The notes below the pieces were generated by a model. It had not been told where the DNA came from and did not search any database. It was given only the letters and a program-made list of their open reading frames with translations. A stretch of 64,000 bases of DNA from Promethearchaeota archaeon (GTDB lineage Archaea; Asgardarchaeota; Lokiarchaeia; Sigyniarchaeales; SOKP01), in contig JAUVNS010000007.1 in assembly GCA_030599585.1 (NCBI GenBank), positions 64,001 to 128,000 on the forward strand, in the 5' to 3' direction. The position numbers and the translations under genes are program-made. Positions 11,919 through 56,390 of the stretch are shown here, one piece after another (the first letter of the stretch is position 1; each line of letters opens with the position of its first letter).

Positions 11919-11991
11919 ATGTGTTGTATGGTGCTTCCATTTCTTCAGCTGAATTCTCGTTTTTTTAACTCAGCTTCATCAGTTAACACAT
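11919..11991 (-). ncRNA. Eukaryote-like SECIS element 1 (3' UTR of hdrA-mvhD)
   Basis: Minus strand reads AUGUGUU-aacug-AUGA-A-GCUGAGUU-aaaaaaacgag-AAUUCAGC-U-GA-agaa-AUGG-aagca-CCAU-ac-AACACAU. This gives helix I (7 bp), the AUGA/GA core, helix II and an A-rich loop, starting a few nt after the mvhD TAA. Confidence 0.9.
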
Positions 11992-11996
11992 TTATT

Positions 11997-12443
11997 TTAA
12001 GCTTTCGCTTTTTTTGTTGGTGTGCTGTCTTTGGTTTTTAGTGGACTAGGTCCTAATTTTTGTATAAGTTTATCGAATTTTATCACTTCTTGTTGAAACT
12101 TTTGCCCCTCGGCTGCGGTACAATACCCAAACATTATCCGTTCTTCACTGAGTCCCATAGATTTGAGCACTTCTTTTAAATACTCAACTTGCCGGTAAGC
12201 AACATAGTTCCCCGTTTCATAATCGCATTCTTTAGGATATCATCCAACAATCATTACGCCATCAGCGCCTCTACCAAACGATCGCATGACCATATCGGAA
12301 CCAATTCTACCGGAACACGGAACTAAAACCACTCTGATAGATAAGGGATACTGAGCGCGAATAGTTCCAGCCATATCAGCGGAACCATAGCCTCATTTGT
12401 AGCAAAGAAATGCTATAATTTTAATGTCTTGTTCTTCTGCCAT
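11997..12443 (-). CDS. mvhD: Selenoprotein MvhD/VhuD (hydrogenase delta subunit, [2Fe-2S]), 148 aa with 2 Sec
   Basis: Absent from the ORF track. Translation: MAEEQDIKIIAFLCYK-U-GYGSADMAG...VPCSGRI...GADGVMIVG-U-YPKECDYETGN...LGPSPLK...KAKA*. TGA at 12393-12395 (codon 17) and 12240-12242 (codon 68) fall at MvhD Cys positions. GAGGT RBS upstream, TAA stop. Confidence 0.95.
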
Positions 12444-12456
12444 TTCTATTACCTCT

Positions 12457-14433
12457 CTATTCCTCCATTGGTAGTAATTCGTCAATTAATGCCATATACT
12501 GATCGTCTCTAAAGTAAGTCAGTTCAATTGCTTTCGATGGACAAATTGCTGTGCAAGATCCGCAACCACGACATTTAATGATGTCAACAACTAACGCACC
12601 AATTTCATTTACAGAAATTGCGTAATATGGACAGATCTCAATGCATTTATAACATTTCGCACATCTTTCATCTATTGGAGTAGCACGAATTAATTCCATC
12701 GTATGTTCGCCTCTGCCCATAGGAATACTAGCAGCAGATGCAGCACCTCTTGCTTGACTTACGGCTTTATCAATTTCTTTTTGTCCTTGAGCCGAGCCTG
12801 CGATATAAATACCCATAGTTTTTGTGCTAATTGGATCTAATCGAGGATGAAATTCTTTTAAAAATCCATCAGGACTTTTCTCCATCTTCATTACTTTAGC
12901 GATTTCTAGGGTACCCTTAGAAGGGAGCGATGCAGACGATAGAACTACCATATGAGCATCCATGGTAACTACTGTATCTGTTCCAACTGGTTCAAACTTA
13001 ACCGTTAAATTCTTCGTTAATGGATCTTCTTGGATTTCTCCAACTAATCCTTTAAGAAATATTATTCCGGCTTCTCTTGAACGTCTATAGTATTCTTCGT
13101 AATCTTTACCGGCGCATCTCATATCTATATATGTACATACGATATCTGAATCAGGGTACTCCGATTTAATTAATTTAGAGTTTTTTAGCGATAGATTGCA
13201 GCATATTACCGAGCAATAAGCGTTTTTCGATACATCTCTACTCCCTACACAATTAATAAACAAGATTTTTGTAGGGCGTTTTCCGTCAGAAGGTCGTTTT
13301 AAGTGTCCGAATGTGGGCCCGTTGGGGGCTAATATTCTTTCTAGTTGAATTTGGTTGATTACATTTTCATATGTTCCATAACCATAATCATCACCTTCGT
13401 AGATGTCCCAACCCGTTGCTACTACTATTGTTCCCACTTCAAGATCTAGAAATTCATCTTGAATGCTAAAATCGATTGAATCTTCTTCGCAAGCATCAAC
13501 ACAAGCAAAACATTCAACACAAGTTTCTCGATTTATATCATAAATCGCAGGAACTGCCTGAGCAAAAGCGATGTCAATACATTTTCTAGCAGATAATCCT
13601 TCGTCAAAACTGTTAGGGATGAAAATTGGGCAAACTTCAGTACAAGCTCCACATCCGGTACATGTTTTCTCACTTACAAATCGGGAGTTCCTTTTAACTT
13701 TTATTCTGAAGTTTCCAATGTATCCATCGACTTCCACGACTTCGGAGTATGATAGGATCTCGATATTTGGATGACGATTTGCCTCCAACATTTTAGGACC
13801 GAGAATTCATATCGAACAATCGTCAGTTGGGAAAGTTCTATCTAACTGGCTCATTCTTCCGCCAATAGTAGTATTCTTTTCAACTAAGTACACTTTAAAT
13901 CCTTTGTCTCCTAAATCTATAGCAGTTGACAACCCCGCAATACCACCCCCTACTACTAGAGCAGCAGGTGTTACAGGAACGGTTTTAGTAGGTACGTTTT
14001 CTAATAGTCTTGATCGTGCTATTCCTGCCCTTATAAGTTCGATAGCTTTTTTAACGGCTTTTTCTCTTACTTCAAGAGCTTGGTGAACGAAACTACAGTG
14101 TTCTCTGATATTTACAAATTCTAAATATCTTGGAGGGAGGCCTGCTTCAGTTAAAATTGCGTGAAAGACAGGTTGATGAGTTTTTGGAGTACACGCAGCA
14201 ACAACGATTCTTTCGAGTCTAAATTCCTCGATCTGTTCCTTGATATACTCTGATCCACCCTCAGTTCACATAGACATATACTCGAAAGCTTTGACACCTT
14301 CTAATTTATTGAGTTCTTCGACAATTCCAGGTACGTCTAGTATTCCAGCGATATTAATACCTCACCGACACACAAATACACCAACAACTGATTTCTTAGT
14401 GTTATTATTATCCTTGGTCTGATTTCCAGACAT
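12457..14433 (-). CDS. hdrA: Selenoprotein heterodisulfide reductase subunit A, 658 aa with 3 Sec
   Basis: The ORF track shows only the C-terminal 444 aa. The frame extends to ATG 14433 through TGA at 14362-14364 (GVFVCR-U-GINIAG), 14266-14268 (YMSM-U-TEGG) and 13807-13809 (DRTFPTDDCSI-U-ILGPKM). It also contains VVAACTP, NIREHCS and the FAD motif VVGGGIAG. Confidence 0.95.
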
Positions 14434-14664
14434 TTTTTACACCTTGGTTTATATATCCTCCTAATTATTCAAGAGTCTATACTTTTCTAATAGCTTCTTT
14501 ATAGTTCTTAATACATTTTAATTATGTATGTAAAATAGTTCTTATTATTAAAATTCAATTATTATCAGTTTTAAATCGATTATTATAACATTTACTCTTA
14601 AAGTGAAGTAACATAAATTTCTAATATTGAATAAAAAAATAAAAATAGATAAAAAAATAGTTAA

Positions 14665-15222
14665 TTATTTTCCGCCAAATTCAGTGACGTCACCAAACAA
14701 ACGCCTCACAGCATCTATTCTGGTTTCTTCACCAATTTGTTCGACATTTTTCAACGCTATGGCTTCTTTTGGGCAAACCGCAATACATTGAGGCTCTGTT
14801 TTTCCAACTTCAGGATCAATGAAATCTTCCTTCATACCATCGCAAAGGTCACAAATAAGAGCATTCTGGGTGTCGATGTGTAAATTTATAACTCCAAAAT
14901 CGCAAGCGCGGATACAATAAGCACATCCATTACACTTATCATCATCTACGATTATAGATCCTGTCTCTTCATTTTTCGACAATGCCTTTTCGGGACAACT
15001 TCGAATACATGGTGCGTCCTCACATTTTTGGCACGCTAGAGCGATGTTAAAAACTGGTTCAATTCGGACTCTATGAATTCGGGTGTTAATAGGATTAAAT
15101 TCGCCATCGTGGACAAATGAGCATACTGATTCGCATGTTTCGCATCCGGTACATAAATCTGGATCAATAATTATAAATTGATGCATCTTTCCCCCGCGTT
15201 TCTTCAAGGATGATCTTGACAT
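14665..15222 (-). CDS. 4x[4Fe-4S] electron-transfer subunit (DmsB/HydN-like) partnering the AOR
   Basis: CTGCETCESVC, CQKCEDAPCIRSCP, CNGCAYCIRAC and CDLC...PQCIAVCP; immediately downstream of aor. The real start may be the second Met (MHQFII). Confidence 0.9.
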   Translation of the reverse strand: MSRSSLKKRGGKMHQFIIIDPDLCTGCETCESVCSFVHDGEFNPINTRIHRVRIEPVFNIALACQKCEDAPCIRSCPEKALSKNEETGSIIVDDDKCNGCAYCIRACDFGVINLHIDTQNALICDLCDGMKEDFIDPEVGKTEPQCIAVCPKEAIALKNVEQIGEETRIDAVRRLFGDVTEFGGK

Positions 15223-15226
15223 TTTC

Positions 15227-17158
15227 CTATTTACCCCCGGCTGGTTTTAACTTACCAATTACAAAATCCAACCCCAAACTCTTTAGAGTTGCATCCGTAG
15301 GAATTCCCGTTTTCGTGTCCCAACCTCGAGCTTCGTAGTATCCGCTTAGAAGTTTTTGATATCCTTCTTCTTTTAAAACGACCCCTTTAGCAGGACCCTT
15401 TGTGTGTGCTTCTTTAAAGAACCTTTCTGGGGGATGATCGTCTGCTCTGGTCCACCCTTCTCGAATATTGAAACATTTTGAAAGGTTTAAGATAGAAGCT
15501 CCTCTTTTATTAATCGATTCTTCAGTGTGTGGAATACCAGTTACTAACTCATAGACTTTTGCCAACTCTGCATCGTTTTCATAAATTCCACGAGTGAACT
15601 TACAAATTATATACGAATCGATAATACAATAGATGTCTTCAAGTCCTATGATTGCTTTACCGCGTTCAAGTGGTTTGTCGTATCCGAATCTATCGAATTT
15701 ACCTTTAGCGTCAAGTCCATAAGCACCATTCCTCAAATGGCAAGCGCCTCTAATAGATACGCTTTCGCCTACAGCAAAACTTGTCATTCCGTGAAGATCA
15801 AAAGCAGGCATTTCTAATCCTTTAATATGCATTCCATAATAGCCAGCGTTCTTTATTCCCTTTTCTTCTAACCTAATACCCGCTTGTTTACAGCCATCTC
15901 CAAAGATTTCATTAGCAAAACCTTTACCAAGAATCATTTCTTCTGTAAATCGTGCTAGATTAGTAGTAGAACCAAATGGGAGTTCGAAACCAAGGTCTTT
16001 TTTCGTTATAAGTCCTAGATCGTATAATTCGCAAGCCATACTGGCTGTTACACCGCCACTAATGGCGTCAATTCCTAGATCATCGCATAAAGCAACGCAT
16101 TTGAAAATTGTTGGCCAGTCAGCGCATCCAGTGTTAGTACCAAATGAATAACACATTTCTACATCAATTGAAGCGACTAAGTTTGGATATTCAGGGTGAG
16201 TTTTAGGTACTCTAGCGAGGTGATCGCAAGCGATTGAGCATTGAGAGCAAGCAACTTTTTTAACAATCCAGTCTTCGTTTAATTTATCACCAGTAAAGGC
16301 TCCTTTATCAATTTCTTCCCATGTGCCTTCGCGATAATTCATGGTAGGCATCATTCCGAGTTTATTGTAACTAGTTATTCCTGCAGGAGTGCCTAAATCA
16401 CGATATTTGGCGGTTGCAGGGCCATTCGCAATTTTAATTAATTTCTTTGCTATCTTGTAAAATTCCTGAGGATAAGCAACTTTAAGGCCTTTCGTGCCCC
16501 GAAAAGCTATTGCTTTCAGATTTTTACTGCCCATCACAGCTCCCATACCAGTTCGACCAGCTTGTCTATTCCTATCGTTCGTAATACATGCTAATTTGCT
16601 TAATCTTTCTCCTGCCTGTCCGATTGACATAACTGCTAATCTCTGATCTTGGAATTCTTCTCTGAGAATTTCTTCCGTTTCAAAATTTCCTTTTCCCCAA
16701 ACCGTTTTTTCACATGGCTCTAGGTAGTAATCGTCATCATCTACAACCAGGTATACGGGTTCAGAAGCTTTTCCTTTGATCACGATCGCATTGACTCCAG
16801 CGCGTCGTGCTTGTGCACCAACAGAACCTGAGGAAATAGCCATACCAAACATACCTGTTAACGGTGATTTAGCAAATACGCCGTATTTTGAACTAGTAGG
16901 TAGTATTGTAGTTGGAAAAGGGCCTATAGACCAGACAAATATGTTTTCTGGACCTAATGGGTCTATACCTGGTTTTAATTCGTCCCAGAGGATTTTTGCT
17001 CCAAATCCATAACCACCAATCCAATCTCGGCAGAATTCTCCAGATAAAGTAGATTTACCAATTTTTCCACTGGTTAAGTCGACATCGAGTCTCACTTGAG
17101 AGTATCCTTTGACATCGTCGGGCAAAGTTATTTCTTTAGATTTACTCATGTTTTTCAC
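15227..17158 (-). CDS. aor: Tungsten-dependent aldehyde:ferredoxin oxidoreductase family protein
   Basis: AKSPLTG, AGRTGMGAVMGSKNLKAI, C..C.IAC, CDDLGIDAIS, KGLEMPAFD and YYEARGWD..TGIPT. Confidence 0.92.
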   Translation of the reverse strand: MKNMSKSKEITLPDDVKGYSQVRLDVDLTSGKIGKSTLSGEFCRDWIGGYGFGAKILWDELKPGIDPLGPENIFVWSIGPFPTTILPTSSKYGVFAKSPLTGMFGMAISSGSVGAQARRAGVNAIVIKGKASEPVYLVVDDDDYYLEPCEKTVWGKGNFETEEILREEFQDQRLAVMSIGQAGERLSKLACITNDRNRQAGRTGMGAVMGSKNLKAIAFRGTKGLKVAYPQEFYKIAKKLIKIANGPATAKYRDLGTPAGITSYNKLGMMPTMNYREGTWEEIDKGAFTGDKLNEDWIVKKVACSQCSIACDHLARVPKTHPEYPNLVASIDVEMCYSFGTNTGCADWPTIFKCVALCDDLGIDAISGGVTASMACELYDLGLITKKDLGFELPFGSTTNLARFTEEMILGKGFANEIFGDGCKQAGIRLEEKGIKNAGYYGMHIKGLEMPAFDLHGMTSFAVGESVSIRGACHLRNGAYGLDAKGKFDRFGYDKPLERGKAIIGLEDIYCIIDSYIICKFTRGIYENDAELAKVYELVTGIPHTEESINKRGASILNLSKCFNIREGWTRADDHPPERFFKEAHTKGPAKGVVLKEEGYQKLLSGYYEARGWDTKTGIPTDATLKSLGLDFVIGKLKPAGGK

Positions 17159-17364
17159 TAATTTTAATTTTTGATATTTTTAGTATAGAGAATTAATACT
17201 TAATATAAAAAATTACCATTTATTAGGTTATTTGTTAAATTAAACAACCTCTACTCTGACTGAAATTCTAATTATTAATTCTTCCAAGATAGTGTTAAGA
17301 TGAAATTTACTAAAAATTGATTATTTTATTGGTGAAATTAGAAAAAAAAAGCATTGACTACTAG

Positions 17365-18417
17365 TTAAAGATCGCCACCACTGACAATACTCCAGCTATT
17401 ACCGTTATATGCGTATGTCCACGTATCTCCAAGGGTGTTCCCTGGGAATCGAAACCCTCCAAATAAGATGGTTTTTTGATTATCAGAGTCATAAACCATA
17501 GAGAAATCCATTCTGTTGGAAGGATGACTTAAAGGTAGAACCTCTGTCCATTGATTGTTCGAGGGATCTAATATCCAAGTGTCTTCTATTGCTTCTCCTG
17601 GAGCTCCCGTGCGCCTTCCTCCAAAAACTATTACTTTATGATTCTGAGAATCATACGTCATTCCATGCCAATAGCGGGTGCCTGGGCTACCAGTAGTATT
17701 CAATTCGGTCCACGTATTATTTCCATAATAATAAATCCAAGTATCATCCAGTATAGATGTTGAACGACCTCCAAAGAGAATTGCTCTTTGATTTATGGGA
17801 TCGTAAACCATATTAGATCCGTATCTACCAGAAGGACTACTTAATGGATTTAATTCCGTCCATGTATTGTTGGAATAATTGTATTCCCAAGTGTCGTTAT
17901 AATGGGGTAATGAATCTTTATAACCTCCAAATAAAATAACTCTCTGAAAAATTGGATCGTAATACATAGCACAGCTCTGTCTAATCTCTGGCGCAGTATT
18001 TGGAAAAACTTCGGTCCATTGATTAGTTTGAGAGTCGTAAATCCAAATATCGTTCGTTAATCCTACATTTCCGCTCCAACCCCCAAATAAAATGGTTTTA
18101 TGGTTAATTGAATCATATACCATCGAATGACCCGATCTGGCCGAAGGTTTATTAGTTAAAATAATCTCATTCCACATGTTATCTATAGAATGGTAAACCC
18201 ACATGTCATCACGAACTTCCCAATCAGTTCCATCTTGAGTTCCTCCTCCAAAAATTATCGTTTTCTGCAGTTGAGGATCATATACTGCTCCAGGACCATA
18301 CCTACCTACGGGAGTTTGGCTTTCGATGAAAGTAACTAATAGATAAATTCCTACCAATCCCGAAGAAATAACGATTACTCCCAACACCATGGAAATGTAC
18401 TTAGTTTTCTTTTTCAT
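17365..18417 (-). CDS. Membrane-anchored kelch-repeat beta-propeller protein (copy A)
   Basis: N-terminal TM helix followed by 6 repeats of 'PSxRxxHxMVYD...ILFGG...DTWxY...W'. Confidence 0.9.
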   Translation of the reverse strand: MKKKTKYISMVLGVIVISSGLVGIYLLVTFIESQTPVGRYGPGAVYDPQLQKTIIFGGGTQDGTDWEVRDDMWVYHSIDNMWNEIILTNKPSARSGHSMVYDSINHKTILFGGWSGNVGLTNDIWIYDSQTNQWTEVFPNTAPEIRQSCAMYYDPIFQRVILFGGYKDSLPHYNDTWEYNYSNNTWTELNPLSSPSGRYGSNMVYDPINQRAILFGGRSTSILDDTWIYYYGNNTWTELNTTGSPGTRYWHGMTYDSQNHKVIVFGGRRTGAPGEAIEDTWILDPSNNQWTEVLPLSHPSNRMDFSMVYDSDNQKTILFGGFRFPGNTLGDTWTYAYNGNSWSIVSGGDL

Positions 18418-18594
18418 GAGAAAATACTCTGGTCATTGTATTAAATTAGCTTCCCTAACTATTCTAATAAATTGATTTTACGTAAACTTATATATATTTC
18501 TATTCGAAATACCTTTAATGGAAACCATTAAAATTCTTTTTAACAAACAGTGAATTCTCTATTTATTAAGAAATAAAAGGAGATTCGACTTCTA

Positions 18595-19644
18595 CTAAGG
18601 ATCGTTGCCTTTCACGATATTCCAGCTATTACTGCCATGATTAAATACCCAAGTATCTCCAAGATTATTATCAGTGCCCCTTATTCCTCCAAAAAGGAAA
18701 GTTATTTGAATATTAGAGTCGTAAACCATTGTAAAAAATAATCTATTGGAAGGGGAAGTTTCAGGTAAGACCTCAGTCCATTGGTTGTTGGATGGATCAA
18801 ATATCCACGTATCTTCCAATGCTCCCGCATGGCTTCCCCCGAAGACAACTATTTTGTTGTTATTAGGATCGTACACCATGCCATGCCAGTAACGGGTATC
18901 AGGTTTACTTGTAATAAATATCTCCGACCAGGAGTTATTACCATAATAGTAAACCCAAGTGTCATCCATTGTTGTTGTTGAGCGACCTCCAAAGAGAAAA
19001 CCTCTATTGTTTTTAATTTCGTATACAATTTTTGATCCATACCTAACAGGTGGGCTATTTGAAGGGTTGAGGCTAACCCAGGAATTATTGGAATAAATAT
19101 ATTCCCATGTATCTCTAAAATAACTACTAAAACTTCTGAAACCTCCAAATAATATAACTTTCTGTGCGTTAGAATCGTAATACATCGAATGGTCTTGTCT
19201 ATTAGTGGGATGATTCAAGGGAAAAAATTCTGTCCACTGGTTTGTTTGGGAGTCGTAGATCCAGGTATCGCTCGCCAAGCCTACATTTTCTACCCAACCC
19301 CCAAATAAAATTGTTTTATGGTTAATTAAGTCATATACCATCGAGTGACCCGATCTCGCCGAAGGTTTCACAGTTGGATTAATTTCAGTCCATATGTTAA
19401 ATGTTGGATCGTAAAGCCACATGTCATTAAATACTTCAGAACCACTTGTATCTTGATATCCTCCCCCAAAAAGTATCATTTTTTGTAGAACGGGATCGTA
19501 AACCATCGCAGAACCGTACCTCGCTGAAGGAGAAGCATTTTGAATAACAGCAAAAAAAAATAGAGTTCCAATTGTTCCGGAGGAAATTATAATTCCTACT
19601 AAACTTAAAATTAAAATTTTAATTCTTCTCTTCATGAAATCCAC
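18595..19644 (-). CDS. Membrane-anchored kelch-repeat beta-propeller protein (copy B)
   Basis: Same architecture as copy A with long near-identical stretches (KPSARSGHSMVYD.INHKTILFGGW, WIYDSQTNQWTE). Confidence 0.9.
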   Translation of the reverse strand: MDFMKRRIKILILSLVGIIISSGTIGTLFFFAVIQNASPSARYGSAMVYDPVLQKMILFGGGYQDTSGSEVFNDMWLYDPTFNIWTEINPTVKPSARSGHSMVYDLINHKTILFGGWVENVGLASDTWIYDSQTNQWTEFFPLNHPTNRQDHSMYYDSNAQKVILFGGFRSFSSYFRDTWEYIYSNNSWVSLNPSNSPPVRYGSKIVYEIKNNRGFLFGGRSTTTMDDTWVYYYGNNSWSEIFITSKPDTRYWHGMVYDPNNNKIVVFGGSHAGALEDTWIFDPSNNQWTEVLPETSPSNRLFFTMVYDSNIQITFLFGGIRGTDNNLGDTWVFNHGSNSWNIVKGNDP

Positions 19645-19807
19645 TCTAAATAAATTTCCGGTATGCCTTCTTTAATCTTTCTGATTTATTGATATCATGT
19701 CAACTTATATAATTTTCCAATCAAATGCTTTTTAACAATAATAATAGCATATTTAAAGTGGTTTAAATTATATTTAACAACAGAATAAAGACTTTAATGT
19801 TGTTATT

Positions 19808-22570: not shown

Positions 22571-22713
22571 GTATTTACCAGTCATTATTCTCTATTTCTT
22601 TTCTAAACCCATTCTTTTCCCCTCAATTATAACAACCTTAATTAATTCTTGAACTTTAAATCAAATTGAAATAAGGTAACAATATCTTAATTAAATAGGT
22701 GTCTTGATAAACA

Positions 22714-26329: not shown

Positions 26330-26456
26330 ATATCCCGATTTTTACGATTCGGTATAGTACCCTTAATTTTATAACAATGAATTGATTAATAGTATTTGGT
26401 ATTATGAACTAATACTTCTATTTGTTTAATTTAAATATCTTCTTAAAGGCGTTAAA

Positions 26457-40989: not shown

Positions 40990-41080
40990 ATCATTAATTT
41001 GTAATTATTCCATTTTTCTTTTTCAATTCTTTATAATATCACCATAATACCATGGTAATACTGATATATATACATTTAAT

Positions 41081-41100: not shown

Positions 41101-41126
41101 AAGATTTTAAAAATAAAAAAAAAAAG

Positions 41127-41684: not shown

Positions 41685-41763
41685 AAATTTTCACATTTTT
41701 TTTAGAATTTTACTACATTTTTATTTATTATAACAAATTTGTTAAATACCATTTATCTTAGAT

Positions 41764-41915: not shown

Positions 41916-41923
41916 GTTTCCAA

Positions 41924-44463: not shown

Positions 44464-44513
44464 TCTAATTTCTCCAAAATTTTATTTTGATAAATTATTA
44501 ATTATTCCTGTAA

Positions 44514-44665
44514 CTTATAATCCTATTTTTTGAACAGCTCGATCAGAATTTTAGGTACTTCGATTACATGAAATTTTGTTTCAGATTGAAACTGTTTAGC
44601 ATTTTTAAGTGGAGAATTTAAACTACACCAACCTGATAAAAAATTAACCAACTTAAATTTGATAA
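44514..44665. repeat. Degenerate ~150-bp non-coding direct repeat, copy 2, containing palindrome GTTTCAGATTGAAAC (44578-44592)
   Basis: Aligns with 41764-41915 and carries an identical 15-bp palindromic core. Confidence 0.75.
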
Positions 44666-44895
44666 AATTATATACAAAAATTAGGTCTAATTTATTATGA
44701 ACTTCAGATTCGCATATGGATGGGAGGATATAACTACAATTTTGGAACTCTAATTATTAAATATAAACTACTTCTTTTGATCATTTGATTACCAATTTTA
44801 GATTAAATGAGAGAAATTTAAGTAGTTAGATTTCTATGAAATCTTCAAAAGTATTTTTATTCTAAAAAAACATATTACCAAATTGGTCGAAACCT

Positions 44896-45858: not shown

Positions 45859-45981
45859 TTTCTTAAATTTTCTATTTCTTTTTTTTTAAAATCGTATTAC
45901 CGTATTAAAACATAACCTTTCTTGGAGTATTAATATTTTTTAGCCAATCACTTTAAATTTGAAAACATTTTATTGAATATT

Positions 45982-46491
45982 ATGAACGAAGAACCGCCAA
46001 GGCCTAGTGGATTACCAGCGGGTTCTATAGCACCTATCTTTGATACTAAAGACATCTACGGAAAAGAAATGAATTTAGAAAACTTGCTTGAAGAATACGA
46101 CGGAGTGCTAATTGATTTCTTTAGAGGAAATTGGTGAAGTCATTGCAAAAAACATTTAACGCTACTAACCGAAAAGATATCCGAATTTAAGAATAGGAAC
46201 ATTAAACTTATGTCAATAGCAAGCGATAGCGAAAGACTTTTAAAGAAATTTAAAGAAGAAAATAATTTTGCTGTTGATATGATCTCTGATCGTGGAGCTA
46301 AAATTGCAAAAGAATACGATGTTTACTGGTTTGCTCCCGGTGGAGGAGGAACTTTGAACGTAAAACAAGCGGTGCCAAGCAAATTTCTGATAAATAAGGA
46401 AAGAAAAATCTTATGGACATACATTGGTAAAGATAAAACCGACAGGCCTTCTATAAAAATGATGACAGACATCATAGACGAAAAAATTTAG
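45982..46491 (+). CDS. Peroxiredoxin-like (AhpC/TSA, thioredoxin fold) selenoprotein with UxxC, 169 aa
   Basis: From ATG 45982: MNEEPPRPSGLPAGSIAPIFDTKDIYG...LIDFFRGNW-U-SHCKKHL. TGA at 46135-46137 (codon 52) is in frame with track ORF 46210..46491. TAG stop, SECIS directly downstream. Confidence 0.92.
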
Positions 46492-46498
46492 ATTTTAG

Positions 46499-46571
46499 AA
46501 TCCCTTAAGAATGAATCGTGCGTGAAAATTTTAGACAAACGAGGACGAACCTCGCAAAGGTTTATGGGATT
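46499..46571 (+). ncRNA. Eukaryote-like SECIS element 2 (3' UTR of the UxxC Prx-like gene)
   Basis: AAUCCCuuaaga-AUGA-A-UCGUgcGU-gaaaauuuuag-ACaaACGA-G-GA-cg-AACCU-cgcaa-AGGUU-uau-GGGAUU; helix II has two mismatches. Confidence 0.82.
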
Positions 46572-46858
46572 TATTTATTTTCTTTTTGATTGTGGGAATT
46601 TTATTCATAAGAAATAATAGAAAGAAAAGGTAGGAATATTTCTACGCCAACTTGAATTTCTTGAAAAATTGACTTCTTTTAGATGCATCTAATACTTCGA
46701 GTAAACAGATTTACAAATATGTCACATTATTTTAATTGCTCAATAAGTATATAAGTATATATTCAAGTTTAACTCCAATGAATAATAATCAACAAAAATT
46801 CTTTCAATAAATTTTAATTTACAAATCAAAAAAAAAAATATGAATTCTATAAGGAGAT

Positions 46859-48160
46859 TTGATTAAAATGGTAGAAAAAAAAACCGCTTGGTATGAAACA
46901 CCTGTAATTAAGGATATGATGGCTTTAGTTGGGGGTAGAGCTCTAAGAGCCGTAATGTCAACCTTTTGCTCGTCCAAAACATATCAGGGTAAATCAGCAC
47001 TACTAAGAGTTGCTCGATATTTAGAAGCTTCTCTTGATAAACAAGAAAGAAGAGCGTTAATAATAACAGACTCGTTTACTCAAAAATTTACTAAAAAGAT
47101 AACTAGCTACCTGGATTTAATTGAAATGGAATATAAAATATGGTCTGGAGCAATACCAGAAGTGCCAATCTCAACAATCTATGAAGGGGCTAAAATATGC
47201 GAAGAGTTTAAGCCACAAGTATTAATCGCATTAGGAGGCGGTAGCGTCATGGATACAGCAAAAATGGTAATGGTCAAATACGAAAAACCTGAAATAAATT
47301 TGATGATGATTTTGCCGTATTTCGGTTCTCTGGGATTACGAAAGAAAATGAAATATTTTATAGCAATTCCTACGACATCTGGGACGGGTTCCGAGGTAAC
47401 TCAAGCAGCCGTAATTACAGATACCGATAGAGAACCGCCTAAAAAACTTGTAGTGTTGAGCGACGAGATATATGCTGATATTACGATTTTATTTACAGAT
47501 TTTGTTAAAGACATGCCTCCATTTCTAACAATGGCCACAGGTTTAGACGCTCTTTCTCACGCTTTGGGGAGTTACATTTCAAATTGGGGTAGCCCATATA
47601 GTGACGCCATGAATTCGACTGCGATAAAAGAAGTCGTAAAATACCTTCCACGTGCTTACAAATACGGAGTTAAAGATATAGAAGCTAGAGAACATATGCA
47701 AATGGCTGCACTAATGGCAGGAATTGGATTTGGAAATACAACAGCGGGAATAGACCATGCGTTAGGACATAGTTTCGGGAAAATATTTGGGGTACATCAC
47801 GGAATATGTGTCGGATTGTTCGCCCCTTATTCTATTGCTTTTCAAGCAAAAGTTACCGATAGATGGAGAGCCTTATGCCCAATTTTCAATGTTAAAGATG
47901 AAAACAAGGGTAGAGATGAATTATACAAAGAATTTCTTCAAGCCGTCAAGAATTTTATAGTCTCACTTGATGGTCCTGTATGCGTAAAAGATTTGAAAGA
48001 TCCTGTTATTAGCAAAGAAGATTATTTCTCAAAACTAGATTTATTAGCAGAATATGCTGACGACGACGCAGTATCTCTAACTTCTTTTCGTACAATTAAT
48101 AGAAAGCTATATAAAACCATCTTTGAATACGCGTGGGATGGAAAAGATATTGATTTTTAA
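46859..48160 (+). CDS. Iron-containing alcohol dehydrogenase (AdhE ADH-domain-like)
   Basis: IALGGGSVMDTAK, AIPTTSGTGSEVT, GLDALSHA and GIDHALGH....FGVHHG. Confidence 0.9.
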   Translation: MIKMVEKKTAWYETPVIKDMMALVGGRALRAVMSTFCSSKTYQGKSALLRVARYLEASLDKQERRALIITDSFTQKFTKKITSYLDLIEMEYKIWSGAIPEVPISTIYEGAKICEEFKPQVLIALGGGSVMDTAKMVMVKYEKPEINLMMILPYFGSLGLRKKMKYFIAIPTTSGTGSEVTQAAVITDTDREPPKKLVVLSDEIYADITILFTDFVKDMPPFLTMATGLDALSHALGSYISNWGSPYSDAMNSTAIKEVVKYLPRAYKYGVKDIEAREHMQMAALMAGIGFGNTTAGIDHALGHSFGKIFGVHHGICVGLFAPYSIAFQAKVTDRWRALCPIFNVKDENKGRDELYKEFLQAVKNFIVSLDGPVCVKDLKDPVISKEDYFSKLDLLAEYADDDAVSLTSFRTINRKLYKTIFEYAWDGKDIDF

Positions 48161-48175
48161 TATGGAGGGAAAAAG

Positions 48176-50050
48176 ATGAGTGAAAATTTATTTGGTTATA
48201 ATGGAAAAATTGCTTATGTGAATTTAACAGACCAAACTGTCGATGTTAAAGATCTGGATGCTCAAGTTGCAAAGCAATATCTTGGTGGTACGGGACTAAG
48301 CGCTAAAATAACTTACGACCTTCTATCAAAAAATGATTACGACACCTTGAAAAAAGACGCTTTTTCAGATATTAATCCATTAATATTTGCGACGGGTCCT
48401 GTTACAGGAACAATAAGGCCGTCCTCCGGAAGGTACACCGTAACAGCGATATCACCCCTTACAGGGATATGGGGTGAAGGCTCTTCTGGGGGATTTTTTT
48501 GTATTCCTTTACATAATAGTGGCTTCGATGCTATAGTTATTGTTGGGAAAGCAAAAAGTCCTATCTATCTATATGTCCACGATGAAACCATTGAATTCAA
48601 AGGTGGAGATGTTGTTTGGGGTAAAGACACGTACGAAACCCAATTAATATTGAAAAAAGAGCTAAACAACGAAAAGATTCGGGTTGCCACTATCGGTATT
48701 GCCGGTGAAAATTTAGTGAAATACGCTGGAATAATTAATGACGAAGGTCGAGCTATAGGGAGATGTGGTTTAGGTGCTGTAATGGGTTCAAAAAACTTAA
48801 AAGCAATTGCAGTTCACGGAACTAAAAAAATCCAAATCGCAGATAATAAAATAGGCAAAGAATTGTTAAAAGAAGCAGAAGATGCAAAGAGAGGAGACCT
48901 CCTTAAATCAATAACGCCTTTTTTATTCACTTTATATGGTACAAACTGCTATTTAGATATAGGTATGGCTCTCGGTGACACACCAGCACATTATTTTACT
49001 AGGAACGAATTTTTCGCTGAAAAATTAACGGGGAAAACATTACGAGAAGAATATCCTATTTTGGACTACGGTTGCGCGGGCTGTACTATGAGATGTGGTA
49101 AAACAACAATTATAGAACACGAGGGCAAAGAAATCGAAGTAGATGGGCCAGAATACGAGTCTGTTGCGGCATTTGGACCTTTATGTGGCGTTAATGATTC
49201 CAAAGAAGTAATTCTCTCGCATCATATGTGTAACATATATGGTTTTGACACTATTTCTGGAGGCGTATCTATCGCATTTTTGATTTACTTAGTTGAAAAC
49301 AATTTAGGGATTGAAAAAATTAAGTCGTATCTAAAAGATATTGAAATCGGAGAAATAAAGTGGGGAAATGGAAATTTACTTTTAAAACTAATTGATAAAA
49401 TTGCGAAAAAAGAAGGCATAGGAAACGTACTTTCTGAGGGTGTACGCACCATGGCAAAAGAATTTGAAGTCGATCCTGAATTAGCAGCGCATGTAAAAGG
49501 TTTAGAAATGCCAATGCACGATCCAAGAGCTTTTGCTGGACAAGCTTTAAGTTATATTACTTGTTACGTGGGAGCGAGTCACGAAAAATGCGATTGGTTT
49601 AGCGCTGAAATGGGAAATGTTGCATACCCGAAAATACGAATAAAATCTGGTGATAGAACTTCCATAAAAGGTAGAGAAAAGGGAGTTATTGCCCTACAAA
49701 ACATTAGGGCGATAGATGATTCCGCTGTAAATTGTAACTTCCTAAACCCCTCACTTGAACACATAATTAAACACATCAACGCAGCAACGGGCTTTGATTA
49801 CAGTAAAAAATCTTTATTGCTTGTTGGGGAACGAATAAATACTCTTAAAAGACTTATTATATGCAATCTAGGGATAACAAGAGAAGACGATAAATTACCG
49901 GGGCATCTTAATAAAGTATTAAAGTCTGGTAAAACAGAAGGGGTAAAGTTAGACTTAGATGGGAGCTTAAGGAAATATTATAAAATTCGTGGTTGGGATT
50001 GGGAGACTGGTCGACCAACAAAAGAGAAACTTGAAGAACTAAATATTTAA
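48176..50050 (+). CDS. aor: Tungsten-dependent aldehyde:ferredoxin oxidoreductase family protein (second copy)
   Basis: ISPLTG, GRCGLGAVMGSKNLKAI, GPEYE, KGLEMPMHDPR and YYKIRGWD..TGRPT. Confidence 0.92.
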   Translation: MSENLFGYNGKIAYVNLTDQTVDVKDLDAQVAKQYLGGTGLSAKITYDLLSKNDYDTLKKDAFSDINPLIFATGPVTGTIRPSSGRYTVTAISPLTGIWGEGSSGGFFCIPLHNSGFDAIVIVGKAKSPIYLYVHDETIEFKGGDVVWGKDTYETQLILKKELNNEKIRVATIGIAGENLVKYAGIINDEGRAIGRCGLGAVMGSKNLKAIAVHGTKKIQIADNKIGKELLKEAEDAKRGDLLKSITPFLFTLYGTNCYLDIGMALGDTPAHYFTRNEFFAEKLTGKTLREEYPILDYGCAGCTMRCGKTTIIEHEGKEIEVDGPEYESVAAFGPLCGVNDSKEVILSHHMCNIYGFDTISGGVSIAFLIYLVENNLGIEKIKSYLKDIEIGEIKWGNGNLLLKLIDKIAKKEGIGNVLSEGVRTMAKEFEVDPELAAHVKGLEMPMHDPRAFAGQALSYITCYVGASHEKCDWFSAEMGNVAYPKIRIKSGDRTSIKGREKGVIALQNIRAIDDSAVNCNFLNPSLEHIIKHINAATGFDYSKKSLLLVGERINTLKRLIICNLGITREDDKLPGHLNKVLKSGKTEGVKLDLDGSLRKYYKIRGWDWETGRPTKEKLEELNI

Positions 50051-50090
50051 TTAGCTTTTATTTTTTTTTATTTAGCATATAATTTAATTT

Positions 50091-51194
50091 TCATTCAATA
50101 GAACAAATTAATTCTTCTTTGTATCCGATAATTACTTTAGTAAGTCCTTTTAACAAATTATCAATTTCATCATCGCCCGTATCAACTCTCAAGCATTTTA
50201 GACTCTTTATTTTATCTTCAGTTCCTATGATTAGAATATTATTTTTTTCTACTCTTCTTAAAATTTTCGGTGTAAACTGTTTGTTGCCTCTTCCAAATAC
50301 GAATCCCTGTCCTCCTATAGGTGTTACAATGATTTTAACTTTCTGATATTTACTTAGCAATTCAACTATCCCGCTTTCATTTAAATCTTCACCAACTAGT
50401 GCTTTATTATAAATAGCGTCAACACCAAGTAAGGTTTTATCTAGATTTAACTGGTCCGTAATCGATTTAACAGTCGTGCCGGGTCCTAATAAATATAGTG
50501 TTCCTTCTTCCATAGTTTCATTTATCTGCTGAGCTATCTCGTACTTGTTTTCATCAATAGTCCTTCCAACCTTGGAGCTATCTTTAGCGTTCTGGGTAAG
50601 GTTCTGAAATTTTGGAACTTTTAAATAACCATATAATTTAGAAACTAATCGATTATCTCTAAACGCATCTTCGTCGATATCCAGAACTTCTTTTTCTTGC
50701 GTATCTACCGTTTCTTCTATAAATTTATCTACAATTTGAGCAGCTGCTTTTGGATTTAGCGCAAATACGGAGCTGAACATTTTCACTCCGGATGGAATTG
50801 CAACCACAGGTATTTTTAATTCAATTGCATCAAATATATCTCTAGCCGTTCCATCACCCCCACAAAAGATAAGCAATTCAACTTGTTCTTCCAACATGAG
50901 TTTTGCAATTCTTTTTGTATCCTCTGCCGTCGTCTGTTGTTGGATATGACCAATGACTTCATATCTAAAACCTTTACCACTTACTAACTCTTCTCCCATT
51001 TTTCCGGGTGCAACCAATAAAAAAATTTCATCTCTCGATTCGATATGACTTAAAAATGCCTCTATTCTATTAGCAACGACTGGTAATGCTCCTAATCTAA
51101 GAGCCTCTTTAAATACCTCTCCATCTGTTCCTTTTAGCCCTACACTACCGCCCATTCCTGCGATTGGATTTGCTATAAGTCCAATTCTTTTCAT
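50091..51194 (-). CDS. ATP-NAD kinase family protein
   Basis: NPIAGMGGSVGLKGTDG, GGDGTARD, IPSGVKMFS and GGQGFVFGRGN.Q. Confidence 0.85.
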   Translation of the reverse strand: MKRIGLIANPIAGMGGSVGLKGTDGEVFKEALRLGALPVVANRIEAFLSHIESRDEIFLLVAPGKMGEELVSGKGFRYEVIGHIQQQTTAEDTKRIAKLMLEEQVELLIFCGGDGTARDIFDAIELKIPVVAIPSGVKMFSSVFALNPKAAAQIVDKFIEETVDTQEKEVLDIDEDAFRDNRLVSKLYGYLKVPKFQNLTQNAKDSSKVGRTIDENKYEIAQQINETMEEGTLYLLGPGTTVKSITDQLNLDKTLLGVDAIYNKALVGEDLNESGIVELLSKYQKVKIIVTPIGGQGFVFGRGNKQFTPKILRRVEKNNILIIGTEDKIKSLKCLRVDTGDDEIDNLLKGLTKVIIGYKEELICSIE

Positions 51195-51409
51195 ATTGAT
51201 ATTTTCTCTTTAAATTTGGTGTGGTTTTTTCTATTATGATTTGAATTTAGAATTTTATTTCCAATTTCAAACAATATAACTTAGCATTAATTATTTTTAT
51301 AATTTTGAAAAAAATAATGAGAAGATTTATTCTTTGTAAAAACTTCATCAAAGAATTTGGGGGGAATTTAATAAAATGATTTTTCTATATTTAATCTTTA
51401 ATTTGTGAG

Positions 51410-51601
51410 TTAACTTTTCAGTTTATCATAGCAGTTTTGGCAGAAAAATATTTTTCGCCCTTTTGAAATATCCTTTACCATATAACCTTTCTTATGCGCA
51501 GTCTCACAACCCCAGCACAGCTTAGTAATATGGGTATCAACGACATGATATTCTTTTACATCAAATTTATCTCCTTTTATGAATTCCTTATAACTTAGCA
51601 A
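51410..51601 (-). CDS. Small putative zinc-finger protein
   Basis: CWGC...FCQNCY pair in 63 aa; TTG start; only plausible ORF in an AT-rich gap. Confidence 0.55.
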   Translation of the reverse strand: MLSYKEFIKGDKFDVKEYHVVDTHITKLCWGCETAHKKGYMVKDISKGRKIFFCQNCYDKLKS

Positions 51602-51949
51602 TATTTAGCTCAACTTTAGTTTTTATAATATCGAATGAGTTTTTGAATAATCATTCAATATCTTTTATTATTTGAATAGAATCATATGAGATATTTAAGT
51701 ATTATGAGTGCGTATTCAAATAGCAGTAAGAAGGTGTAGAGCTATTTCATGAATATTTTAAATAAATTATATTAATGAAAACGAAGAAACTAGATTTTTT
51801 AATTAAGAGTTTTAGGTTTTTTTAACATATCAGATAAGGTTTAGTAGAAAGCAGCTAAATTAATTGTAAGAATTTTATGAAGATACCTATGAATTTTTCG
51901 TTTCGATAAATTAGTTAAAAAAAAAAAGTGTTAGAATTTATTTATGGTT

Positions 51950-52573
51950 TTATTTTTCCATGTATATTTTCAAGTAGGATACTCCACCGAATACATATGG
52001 GATTCCAGCATAAGCCCACCCTCCGTCCTCCCAAACTCCTCCATACTCACCATCAGGTGTTAGATACTCACCAGTAGGACTTACCAGCATAGCAATGGTT
52101 ACCGGGATAAATTTACCTCCTGTATTGGGCAAGGTTATAGATTGACCTCGATATTCAAAATTTTCGATAATTGTATCTGTAGTTTTAACCATTCCTTCGC
52201 CCATGACAAGCCAAATGTTAGTCCATATGATGTTCCGCACAGGGCAGTAGTGATATGGAATTACCTGAACAGCCCCATCTTTGAGCATTCCCTTTATTGT
52301 ATAAACTTTATCACCTGATTCATCATAGATTTGTGTTTGGAAATTAAAATGTCCGGAAGATTCACCGCTGACTTTATCGAACTCAATTGCTCCTACGATA
52401 GAAGTTTTAGCTCCAGGAACATCTATGTCATCGCCCTTAGATAGAATAAAGATGTTACTAGAATCAGTAGCTTTTACAGATGTAGCAAATGATATGATAG
52501 TTGTAAGAAACAATGACATTACTAGTACCAAAATCACTTTCGGAAATAATTTTGCTCTATTAATTTTGCTCAA
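51950..52573 (-). CDS. Secreted protein of unknown family (paralog of 61467..62174)
   Basis: Signal peptide ending in VKA; shares KGDD.D..GA..SI.G, IYDESG.KVY..KG.LKDG, VMGEG.VKTTD and ITLPNTGGK with the paralog. Confidence 0.8.
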   Translation of the reverse strand: MSKINRAKLFPKVILVLVMSLFLTTIISFATSVKATDSSNIFILSKGDDIDVPGAKTSIVGAIEFDKVSGESSGHFNFQTQIYDESGDKVYTIKGMLKDGAVQVIPYHYCPVRNIIWTNIWLVMGEGMVKTTDTIIENFEYRGQSITLPNTGGKFIPVTIAMLVSPTGEYLTPDGEYGGVWEDGGWAYAGIPYVFGGVSYLKIYMEK

Positions 52574-52915
52574 CTCTTATTTTTGGTTGATTTCTTTTTA
52601 AAAAGATTCCAACCCTCTATTTAATTCTCTCTCAATTACTAAAATCACAGATTTTTAGTAAATTTGTTAATTTTAATTCAAATTGAGTTATCAAATTATG
52701 TGGGACGGTTCATATTTAAATATTACTATTAATTTAAATATCTAAAATTATGATGTAAATCTATATTTGATAACATGTAACCCATTTATTCGAATGTAGA
52801 TAGACCGTTTTATTTAAATTAAACTTAAATATATGACATGCTTATTTATAAATGGAAAAAGAGATATTCGATATTTCCATAATTATTTTATAGAATTTTA
52901 TGAGCTGTAAATGGG

Positions 52916-53719
52916 TTGTCTGAAAAAAAATATCGCGAAACTATTGCAGAAAAGATAGAAGTGGATGAAAACAAACAGTTTGTTATAAATCTACCTAATG
53001 GAGAACAAATATATGTTGAGTTAAACGACAAAGAGATTGATACCGTAGAAAATTGGTTTTCTTTATTTGGTAAACATAATTTAAGATTCGACATTTGGAA
53101 TATTTTACAAATATTTGAGGAAGCTAATGTAACTCAAATTAGCAGCATGGTAGAACAAAGTAAATCGACCGTGGCCAGACATCTCAATCTGATGGAAAGC
53201 GATGGTCTTATTTTATCAAGGAAATCTGATAAAACTCAACAAGGAAAAATACCTCCAAAACTATTTAGAGTAAACAGTAAGTTAGTTCAAGTAGTCGAGA
53301 ATAGCCCCGTAAATAAACCACCCCCCGACGATCCTTTAGAATTAATTGAATTCTATAAAAAAGAAATTCAAACCTATCGAGCATCTATTTATAGGTATAG
53401 ACTTTTACTTGATTCACTTGTTCCGTTGTTAGACGATTTAGAAGATCACCTTGATGATGTTGATGCCGCTAAAGATATTTATGAAAAATATTTCAATTTT
53501 ACTAGATTAACACCTTGGTTTGGTTTTTGCCACTTTAGCGATAAATATTATGAGCAATTCATGGATGCATATACTGAACATACACAAAAGCGTTTACAAT
53601 TATTATCAGTTCAAAATAATGATCCTGAGGTTAAAGAAAGAGAATATACTTATATCACCGCAATTTTGCCATTGAAAGCCCTAATTGAAATTTATCGGCG
53701 AAAATTGAAAGAAGAATAA
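52916..53719 (+). CDS. ArsR-like winged-helix transcription regulator
   Basis: LRFDIWNIL...NVTQIS..VEQSKSTVARHLNLMESDGLI. Confidence 0.8.
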   Translation: MSEKKYRETIAEKIEVDENKQFVINLPNGEQIYVELNDKEIDTVENWFSLFGKHNLRFDIWNILQIFEEANVTQISSMVEQSKSTVARHLNLMESDGLILSRKSDKTQQGKIPPKLFRVNSKLVQVVENSPVNKPPPDDPLELIEFYKKEIQTYRASIYRYRLLLDSLVPLLDDLEDHLDDVDAAKDIYEKYFNFTRLTPWFGFCHFSDKYYEQFMDAYTEHTQKRLQLLSVQNNDPEVKEREYTYITAILPLKALIEIYRRKLKEE

Positions 53720-53847
53720 TCACTGTTTTGTCTAAATTGAGTGTCGTCATTTAAAAAAAAAAATAAAATAAAATAACTTATGTTAATTTAAAAAATAAAA
53801 AAAAATTATACTAAATACAATAAATCAAATTAGGTTAAAGATTAAAA

Positions 53848-54321
53848 ATGGCTCAAAATTTTAAATTTAATTTAGGGAATTTAAAAATAGATCAAATGAG
53901 TTTTGTTTACAAGGACATTAAAAAACAGGCAAAAAAAATGGAGCAGATATATAGTATTCCTACTTTCGCCCAGATGGAAAATATTACTCATCAAGAAGCT
54001 ACCTATCGCGGGAAAGAAGTAACAATCATAATAGATTATGCGTTTAGTCGTCTACTTAACATACAAATTGAACTTCAGCAGTGGAAAAGTGGAGATTCTC
54101 TTTTTAAAGAATTCATAGATCAAGGAAAAGAAGGACTTCATAGTATAGGTGTATATGTAGAGGATCTAGATGCATATATTGATGAATTCAAGAAAAGAGG
54201 GATTGAAGTATTACAAACTGGTCAAATTGGTAAACAAAAATTTGTTTATTTAGACACCAAACAAACTTTTGGTGTTTTATTAGAAATATCAACAACAGTG
54301 AAGCGACGAAGAAAAAAATAA
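53848..54321 (+). CDS. VOC/glyoxalase family protein (methylmalonyl-CoA epimerase-like)
   Basis: IELQQ...S.FKEFI..G.EGLHSIG, FVYLDT...FGV.LE. Confidence 0.85.
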   Translation: MAQNFKFNLGNLKIDQMSFVYKDIKKQAKKMEQIYSIPTFAQMENITHQEATYRGKEVTIIIDYAFSRLLNIQIELQQWKSGDSLFKEFIDQGKEGLHSIGVYVEDLDAYIDEFKKRGIEVLQTGQIGKQKFVYLDTKQTFGVLLEISTTVKRRRKK

Positions 54322-54402
54322 AGTGTCTGTCAAACCTTAATCAATAATTTTGATGTTTTTTTCTTAGTTATCCTTTTTAAATTTAAAAAAAAGAAATGGA
54401 AA

Positions 54403-55257
54403 CTAAATTTTTCTTCCTGTTTTTCGCCTTGCTCTTTTATAAAGTCTATCTAATACACCACGCATATCATCTGGGTTCGCTCTCATATCTTTTATTTGAA
54501 TAGCGGCTTCACCTGGTAAAATTTCAAAACTTCCTTCTAAAATACTTTGAATAAATTCATTAGCTACTTCCTCTGCCGTCATAAGTGTACCTGAATCTGA
54601 AATTATTTTGCATTCTTGTGGCTTAATCCTATTTTCTTCAGCAAAACCGGGAGTTTCAGTATCTACAGGAAAAAGGATTGAGACTTTGATATTATAGGGT
54701 AATAATTCGTGTCGTAATACTTCTGCTAAGCCAAAAATAGCATATTTACTTGGACAATAAGTTGTAAAGCCCATAATTGCCATAAATCCCATAACTGAAG
54801 AAGTAAATGTAATATATCCTTGTTTACACTCTAAAAAATAGGGTAATACAATAAGAGTAGGAACTAACTGACCATAATAATTTATATCCATGTTTCTTTT
54901 AAAGTCTTCAAGAGCCAATTGTTCAAGATATTGCGCATAAGCATAACCTACGAAATTAAATAGATAATCTGGAACTTTATGTTTATTAATAACATCTGTT
55001 ATAAGTGGTTTTAATTTATCCATATCTGTAGTATCGCAGGAAATAATCTCTACAAATTGTGATGCGTCTGATTTTAACTTATAACATTCCTCTTGAGTTT
55101 TATTTAATGCATCAATTCCTCTCGCTATAATACAGATACTCCCTCCTAATTGAATAAATAACTTTGCTGTAGCTTTCCCCATCCCTTTGGAACCACCGGG
55201 AATTATCGCGAACTTTCCTTTAAAGGGTTGTTGAGCTATTAATTCTTCATTCACCAT
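54403..55257 (-). CDS. SDR oxidoreductase, 3-ketodihydrosphingosine reductase (KDSR/Tsc10)-like
   Basis: GGSKGMG, MDINYYG, catalytic YCPSK and the KDSR-type FPVDTETPGFAEENRIKP.E..IIS segment. Confidence 0.75.
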   Translation of the reverse strand: MVNEELIAQQPFKGKFAIIPGGSKGMGKATAKLFIQLGGSICIIARGIDALNKTQEECYKLKSDASQFVEIISCDTTDMDKLKPLITDVINKHKVPDYLFNFVGYAYAQYLEQLALEDFKRNMDINYYGQLVPTLIVLPYFLECKQGYITFTSSVMGFMAIMGFTTYCPSKYAIFGLAEVLRHELLPYNIKVSILFPVDTETPGFAEENRIKPQECKIISDSGTLMTAEEVANEFIQSILEGSFEILPGEAAIQIKDMRANPDDMRGVLDRLYKRARRKTGRKI

Positions 55258-55368
55258 TTTAAATCAATTATATTTATATTCATTTCAATTTAAAACTTAA
55301 TATTTAAGCTTTAAAGATGGTTCTTGATTCTTATGAAGTTAAAATAAAAAAAAAGAATAATCAATCTT

Positions 55369-56190
55369 TTAGTATTCAACCTCTTTTAGCTTATGAGGTG
55401 GGACACCAACATCAGCAGTTCCGCCGTCAATAGGAAAACAATGACCTGTAATATAATTTGAAGCAGGTGATGCTAAAAATACAACTACATTTACTACATC
55501 TTCAACCGTTCCAATTCTGACTTGAGGAATTTTAACTTTACCATCTCTCATCGTGACTCTCATCGCTTCCTCGTCGTCTAAATATACACCCGTGACGTGA
55601 AATCCCGGAGCTATTGAATTTACGGTAATATTTGGAGCTAAACTTTTTGCTAATAGTTGAGTTAATGCTATAATCCCCGCTTTTGTAATGCTGTATGCTG
55701 GAATCATGGGATCGACAACCATTCCAGCTGTAGAAGCTGTATTTATCATCCTACCCGCTAATTCTTCTCCTTCAAATTTTTGAGCTTTCATTTTTCTCCA
55801 TAGTGATTTGGCGACCAGCCACTGACCTTTGAGATTCACGTCCATAATCCTGTCCCAATCATCTTCTTTTACTCTACAGATATTTCTCCCGTAACTCACT
55901 CCAATTCCAGCGTTATTGAATAGGACAAACACATTTTCTAATTCTTTAAACGCTTGTTTTGCCATCGCTTCAACTTGATCGGATTTTGAAACATCACAAA
56001 TAAGAGGTATGACGGTTCTTCCAGTTTTTTTTCTTATTTTTTCAGCAGTATCTTCAAGTAGCTGTTGATTTATGTCGACTAATACCAAGTTTGCACCTTG
56101 TTCTGCGAAAGCATAAGCCACTCCTCTCCCAAATCCGCTAGCCCCTCCGGTGATTAGAGCCCCCTTTCCTTCTAGAAACTTTTCAACCAT
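55369..56190 (-). CDS. Classical SDR oxidoreductase (FabG-like)
   Basis: TGGASGFG, NNAGIG, YSITK, VNSIAPG and YITG....IDGG. Confidence 0.9.
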   Translation of the reverse strand: MVEKFLEGKGALITGGASGFGRGVAYAFAEQGANLVLVDINQQLLEDTAEKIRKKTGRTVIPLICDVSKSDQVEAMAKQAFKELENVFVLFNNAGIGVSYGRNICRVKEDDWDRIMDVNLKGQWLVAKSLWRKMKAQKFEGEELAGRMINTASTAGMVVDPMIPAYSITKAGIIALTQLLAKSLAPNITVNSIAPGFHVTGVYLDDEEAMRVTMRDGKVKIPQVRIGTVEDVVNVVVFLASPASNYITGHCFPIDGGTADVGVPPHKLKEVEY

Positions 56191-56328
56191 ATTATTTCAT
56201 TTTTTTATTTTATTTTATATGTTTTATTTTGTCTTTCTTTCCTTTATATTTTTAATTCTAGGAATAGTTACAAAAAGAAGATAAATAGGACAATCAAAAT
56301 TATTAATTTCTATAAAATAGATGTATAC

Positions 56329-56390
56329 ATAGAAACCCGAGCAGGGTAGTCCTCAAACGTCTAGATTTTATACGCTTGAATCATTCAATT
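56329..56390 (-). ncRNA. Eukaryote-like SECIS element 3 (3' UTR of the UxxU Prx-like gene)
   Basis: Minus strand reads aauuga-AUGA-U-UCAAGCGU-auaaaaucuag-ACGUUUGA-G-GA-cu-ACCC-ugcuc-GGGU-uucuau. Helix II is a full 8 bp; helix I is weak. Confidence 0.88.

Follow-up and report, generated by a model that had tools for sequence, protein, structure and literature searches.

How much RNA does an Asgard archaeon need to read a UGA codon as selenocysteine (Sec)? The question is raised by a 64,000-nucleotide (nt) stretch of Promethearchaeota archaeon contig JAUVNS010000007.1 (positions 64,001 to 128,000; hereafter the window), which carries three Sec insertion sequence (SECIS) elements. An original prediction, made from the letters of the window, held that each element follows a UGA-containing gene and bears a second hairpin just past its core, hereafter the side hairpin. 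The coordinates and strands are as claimed, the helix II pairing (8/8, 6/8 and 8/8) was reproduced, and the side hairpins begin 4, 2 and 2 nt past the 3' GA of the core, with 5-nt, GC-containing loops in all three. Across Asgard genomes, we find the side hairpin to be real, phylum-wide and restricted to Sec-type genes. By sequence comparison, the Asgard SECIS has three arms in its functional form and extends beyond its published core. Two arms leave the junction that helix I closes: one comprises a helix of 1-3 base pairs (bp), the AUGA/GA kink and helix II with its A-rich loop; the other is the side hairpin of 4-7 bp.

Loci were gathered via protein homology to MvhD, PrxL, VhuU and SelD and cover nine Asgard families, all Sec-using. 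The finder that located the elements considers the core only and is blind to sequence 3' of the closing GA. We scored a side hairpin where at least 4 bp enclosed a loop with a G followed by a pyrimidine (G-Y), starting no more than 8 nt after the GA. It is present in 211 of 220 elements, against a mean of 42 (maximum 53) in dinucleotide shuffles, and in 77 of 85 elements of the non-redundant set, against 21 in shuffles. The best hairpin chosen without any G-Y requirement still holds G-Y in 76 of 78 cases (50% in shuffles). The original prediction had proposed a lineage-specific domain; instead, the side hairpin occurs in every Sec-using family sampled and behind all four selenoprotein families.

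The side hairpin accompanies Sec-type genes. Sec-type mvhD genes are followed by it in 13 of 13 cases (one element lay slightly below the core threshold and was judged by eye), their cysteine (Cys)-type paralogs in the same genomes in 0 of 34, and the Cys-type mvhD genes of this genome in 0 of 6. Position-matched 3' regions of ordinary genes in this genome have it in 1.7-2.8% of cases, so similar hairpins are not equally frequent behind genes that encode no selenoprotein. All 10 known-family elements of this genome carry it; for one of them, whose stem is 3-4 bp long, the call was made by eye. A search with the FlpD family returned Cys forms for the most part, and the nearest MvhD relatives of this genome, which is Lokiarchaeia-like, are Promethearchaeota metagenome-assembled genomes.

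Covariation supports the side stem. Given a sequence-only MAFFT alignment of 33 selD elements, RNAalifold predicted the side stem and nothing else, with double changes in 5 of 5 pairs. The side-stem covariation score was 0.53, compared with 0.16 in shuffled alignments (0 of 500) and at most 0.20 with slid partners. Because related genomes are not independent, we also counted compensatory events on the SelD protein tree. Among 3,424 column pairs, the top two both belong to the side stem, with five events each, exceeding the helix II pairs (99th percentile, two events).

Within this stem-loop, conservation is concentrated in two bases. The loop spans 4-7 nt, and the 5-nt size of the window elements is the commonest (49/77) and not a general rule. 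Its G is followed by C in 70 elements and by U in 7, and falls in the first two loop positions in 52 of 77; the flanking loop bases are free, and only G-Y is near-invariant.

Pairing also extends beneath the kink. The nucleotide two positions 5' of AUGA is paired with the one just 3' of GA (the -1b:-1n pair) in 82 of 85 elements, through five pair types (G-C 48, C-G 15, U-A 14, U-G 4, A-U 1), and the next pair below is formed in 63 of 85. An AUGA/GA motif that has a 3-nt bulge and pairs at position -1 counts as a standard kink-turn. By its sequence, the Asgard motif is one: a 3-nt bulge, tandem G.A/A.G pairs, a paired -1b:-1n and a covarying canonical helix of 1-3 bp, and then the junction. 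This short covarying helix, which as read from the alignments completes the kink-turn before the three-way junction, is new anatomy. Helix I reaches at least 5 bp in 92% of elements, versus 41% with swapped partners. At least 1 bp separates kink from branch in 62 of 71 elements, and the side stem abuts the short helix directly in 43 of 71, linker lengths having been measured by a greedy method biased to short linkers.

A k-junction likewise places a third helix on the non-bulged strand of a kink-turn (Wang et al. 2014, PMC4005666; Li et al. 2023, PMC10573300). The third helix of a k-junction lies opposite the loop, whereas in Asgard elements the 1-3-bp helix stands between kink and branch. The arrangement is therefore a kink-turn beside a three-way junction, and a strict k-junction was rejected.

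The core varies among elements. The geometry with an 11-nt apical loop that the original prediction gave for the three window elements holds for type I elements only; the type II elements of selD carry the side hairpin as well. One selD gene has a type I element with an 11-nt loop (L241:1112-1196 (+)) in place of the usual type II, which suggests a SECIS swap. In one genus, vhuU and selD elements (L216:540-620 (+), L218:520-600 (+) and L233 (-)) lack AUGA, reading AUGC or ACGA. In these degenerate elements, helix II and its AAA loop persist, as does the side hairpin with G-Y.

In the window, each element sits 17-19 nt past a stop codon, and the genes before them are real selenoprotein genes with in-frame UGA at Cys-homologous positions: three in HdrA, two in MvhD/FlpD, and one (UxxC) and two (UxxU) in the two AhpC-TSA genes. 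Element 1 is common to hdrA (12457..14433 (-); UGA at 14364, 14268 and 13809) and mvhD/vhuD (FlpD; 11997..12443 (-); UGA at 12395 and 12242). On the same strand, the 5' strand of helix I (11985..11991) precedes the kink-turn core and helix II (11945..11981; AUGA 11979-11976, an 11-nt loop, GA 11946-11945), with U11981 paired to A11944 as -1b:-1n. The side hairpin follows at 11928..11940 (4 bp, loop aaGCa), and the 3' strand of helix I at 11919..11925. An FrhB-like gene (10700..11839 (-)) lies 80 nt downstream on the same strand, which places element 1 inside an operon.

Element 2 (46499..46571 (+)) follows the UxxC peroxiredoxin-like gene (45982..46491 (+); UGA at 46135). Its helix I joins 46499-46504 with 46565-46571 around the core (46511-46545) and the side hairpin (46548-46562, loop cGCaa). 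Element 3 (56335..56386 (-)) follows the UxxU peroxiredoxin-like gene (56404..56910 (-); UGA at 56760 and 56751), with its core at 56384-56350 and its side hairpin at 56347-56335 (loop uGCuc). Both positions of the CxxC motif of this gene (56751-56760 (-)) are thus UGA, and many orthologs in related genomes likewise have two.

All three side hairpins fold alone (z -3.5, -2.9 and -2.1 for elements 1, 2 and 3). Helix I had been predicted to close elements 1 and 2 into three-way junctions. Element 1 forms the full junction in both the minimum free energy (MFE) and centroid structures (z -4.0). Helix I of element 2 (at least 7 bp) can close, and the MFE structure favours a different pairing because of two mismatches in helix II and because RNAfold has no scores for G.A pairs. 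No clear helix I was seen in element 3, as had been anticipated.

The core of these elements is already known. The lokiSECIS of Mariotti et al. 2016 (PMC4989117) was described as AUGA, a 9-bp stem, an 11-nt loop that begins with adenines and ends in AG, and GA/AA, with one element for hdrA-vhuD. Huang, Xiao and Zhang 2024 (PMC11227280) extended it to eSECIS-like type I and II elements and 1,224 Asgard genes. Elements 1-3 have all the lokiSECIS core features: AUGA and GA/AA, a 9-bp stem (the helix II pairs plus N.N), an 11-nt loop with adenines at its start and G (mostly AG) at its end, a position near the stop of a gene with UGA at Cys positions, a single element for hdrA-vhuD, the same gene families and Sec machinery in the genome. 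They belong to this published family, and their sequences predict that they direct Sec insertion. No match to any Rfam model, SECIS models included, was found in the window or in six loci.

The side hairpin and the short helix under the kink appear to be undescribed. PMC11227280 presents the lower part as an internal loop and lower stem without highly conserved nucleotides; its family-specific lower-stem pairs agree with our helix I. The lokiSECIS text, so far as available, mentions none of the side hairpin, its G-Y loop or the short covarying helix under the kink. A 2026 review again gives a two-stem model. The searchable text on Asgard SECIS, as distinct from figures and supplementary tables, contains no side hairpin or junction, and the text available from PMC4989117, PMC11227280 and PMC13188914 places no such hairpin in the consensus, in line with the original prediction. 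PMC11227280 set aside 49 methanogen-like hairpins, most of them located 3' of the core. A few of these may be partial sightings of the side arm, because 7 of our 220 elements fit the methanogen-like pattern.

What does the side hairpin do? Eukaryotic SECIS elements have two read-outs, the apical loop by eEFSec and the core by SBP2; in mammals it is EFsec that reads the apical loop. The Asgard elements share with them the kink-turn core, apical adenines, 3' untranslated region (3'-UTR) position and lower helix, and differ in a shorter helix II, a three-way junction in place of an internal loop, and the lack of SBP2. Asgard archaea have no SBP2 according to PMC11227280. This genome has only two L7Ae-family frames, of 134 amino acids (aa) each, and none of SBP2 size. 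Two eukaryotic read-outs and no Asgard SBP2 together favour the G-Y loop as the second read-out, and a free stem, a fixed two-base loop and restriction to Sec genes argue for base-specific recognition.

We therefore lean towards the side hairpin being a second recognition determinant that, in a system lacking SBP2, docks a factor or the ribosome. The kink would swing the side hairpin, usually abutting the short helix, to a position beside helix II, where the AAA apical loop and the G-Y loop would be presented jointly. G-Y would then offer a second base-specific site to a trans partner, be it domain 4 of EFsec, a ribosomal component or another protein, which would tether the element to the decoding ribosome as SBP2 does in eukaryotes. 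The original suggestion of a binding site for the elongation factor or an SBP2/L7Ae-like protein is plausible. L7Ae and SBP2 proteins recognise kink-turns, not hairpin loops.

The machinery narrows the choice of partner. This genome encodes EFsec, two SelD, SecS and a PSTK-like kinase; no reliable location was obtained in it for tRNA-Sec. Several f10 genomes (L119-L126) have a second, UGA-free SelD, mostly of 740-780 aa (a fusion), and no SECIS is evident downstream of this gene. The EFsec of Asgard archaea is colinear with Methanococcus maripaludis SelB and ends after domain 4 with no extra RNA-binding domain; 28 full-length frames span 461-515 aa. Bacterial SECIS are read by the C-terminal winged helices of SelB. 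Their apical loop (G23/U24; PMC8659212, PMC13188914), about 5 nt long, likewise tops a short hairpin and has a G-pyrimidine close to its 5' end, a resemblance only: the bacterial element lies in the coding region right after the UGA, whereas the Asgard element is in the 3'-UTR. A winged-helix reader on EFsec is ruled out, since the protein has neither winged helices nor a C-terminal extension.

Several points weigh against docking by a trans factor. The sample is weighted toward Lokiarchaeia, and its members are kin and not independent. A near-invariant dinucleotide is unable to show covariation, so G-Y may instead make a tertiary RNA contact. The SelB of M. maripaludis, colinear with Asgard EFsec, reportedly does not bind its SECIS, and methanogen SECIS function as simple hairpins without a side arm (PMC11881835). 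The proposed spatial arrangement draws on linker lengths from the short-biased measurement. Among the candidates examined (EFsec, the L7Ae-family frames and the Asgard-only protein Sel_Asgard), none emerged as a partner for the side hairpin.

The strongest competing reading, which we regard as a realistic if lesser possibility, makes the side hairpin an internal strut: its G-Y loop would dock on helix II or on the final G of the apical loop and lock the kink without an L7Ae/SBP2 protein or any trans factor. That final G is near-invariant (29 of 30 type I elements) and is called unexplained in PMC4989117, the 43 of 71 side stems that directly follow the short helix would sit beside helix II, and k-junctions fold on metal ions alone, unresponsive to L7Ae. 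GNRA is a common docking loop and fits 41 of 77 side loops; the other 36, including those of elements 1 and 3, do not fit, and GNRA docking was discarded as a general rule. A fixed contact also sits poorly with the spread of GA-to-GY distance (6-13 nt) and helix II length (6-10 bp), with a loop pyrimidine that covaries with no core position (mutual information at most 0.09) and with hairpins retained where AUGA decays. Watson-Crick pairing between apical and side loops was also rejected, as inspection found no complementarity and no covariation was seen.

A more radical and quite tentative idea is that recognition of the Asgard SECIS rests primarily, and ancestrally, on the G-Y side hairpin, which would outrank the AUGA kink-turn in importance and do the job of SBP2 in RNA or via a factor. 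The eukaryotic internal loop would then be what remains of that arm, which was lost and superseded once the kink-turn had become free for an L7Ae-domain protein to use.

It is unlikely that Sel_Asgard (NCBIfam NF045535) reads the side hairpin as an SBP2 analogue, a specific form of the factor-docking explanation. The protein adjoins secS in 27 of 31 loci, is titled 'putative selenocysteine system protein', is probably the hypothetical protein flagged in PMC11227280, and was not found in M. jannaschii, whose kin have armless SECIS. It also occurs, however, in families that yielded neither SecS nor SelD (f15 14/14, f6 4/4, f18, f23 and f27), some with the same gene neighbourhood, and an imperfect profile gave no match in two f19 genomes, both 100% complete and both with side hairpins. 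Its predicted structure (mean model confidence, pLDDT, 94) combines an alpha/beta domain with a four-helix bundle; fold searches with this model gave no clear match to any RNA-binding fold and no L7Ae or winged-helix fold, which does not imply a new fold. Occurrence in Sec-less families, the lack of a match in Sec-positive f19 genomes and the model fold make it a weak candidate. Separately, a 790-aa protein (G000 C8:100635-103007 (+)) has a C-terminal domain homologous to Sel_Asgard (E 4e-25), and the best Atlas shape match is a 788-aa Asgard PCI/UFL1/DDRGK-type cluster.

Finally, a generic stability, 3'-end or termination hairpin merely beside the SECIS is very improbable: although U- or pyrimidine-rich tracts follow many elements, helix I encloses the arm, and element 1 lies within an operon and precedes A-rich, not U-rich, sequence, which makes a terminator or stability role unlikely, and the loop bases are conserved in a hairpin found behind 0 of 34 Cys paralogs and 2-3% of ordinary genes.

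How an archaeal SECIS communicates with the ribosome without SBP2 is an open question in PMC11881835 and PMC4989117. The Methanococcales/Methanopyrus SECIS resemble the Asgard elements in being archaeal, in their 3'-UTR position and selenoprotein families, and in that their reader is not known; they have a GAA/A bulge, a pattern that overlaps 7 of 220 Asgard elements, and differ in that a minimal simple hairpin is functional (PMC11881835). The eukaryotic element is held to descend from Asgard SECIS, and the picture of this ancestor changes with a third arm that is phylum-wide and has two invariant bases. The G-Y arm offers precise mutations and a bait for the missing factor. Constructs limited to the core may be incomplete. 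A Loki element showed no activity in M. maripaludis, and its listed energy, -6.9 kcal/mol, would fit a short construct.

The side arm also sharpens selenoprotein discovery, as only 74 of 1,338 core-like chance matches in this genome (5.5%) carry it. A core-like hairpin 231 nt behind a proteasome-alpha-like gene (G000 C4:29435 (+), L156), which has no Sec frame, -1 pair or G-Y side loop, is likely a false SECIS that the arm would filter out. A full three-armed element follows a small frame with adjacent UGA-UGA (HAD-U-U-ADN; L154:499-705 (+), G000 C40 near 117301), the tested part of which had no Pfam match, and another three-armed element follows a membrane-type frame of about 67 codons with GGG-U-xx-C (L153:987-1190 (+), G000 C34 near 226786). 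Core and side hairpin also stand behind short UGA frames of 67, 125 and about 40 codons at G000 C21:176757 (+), C35:10333 (+) and C26:252454 (+), which are candidate selenoproteins outside the published Asgard families.

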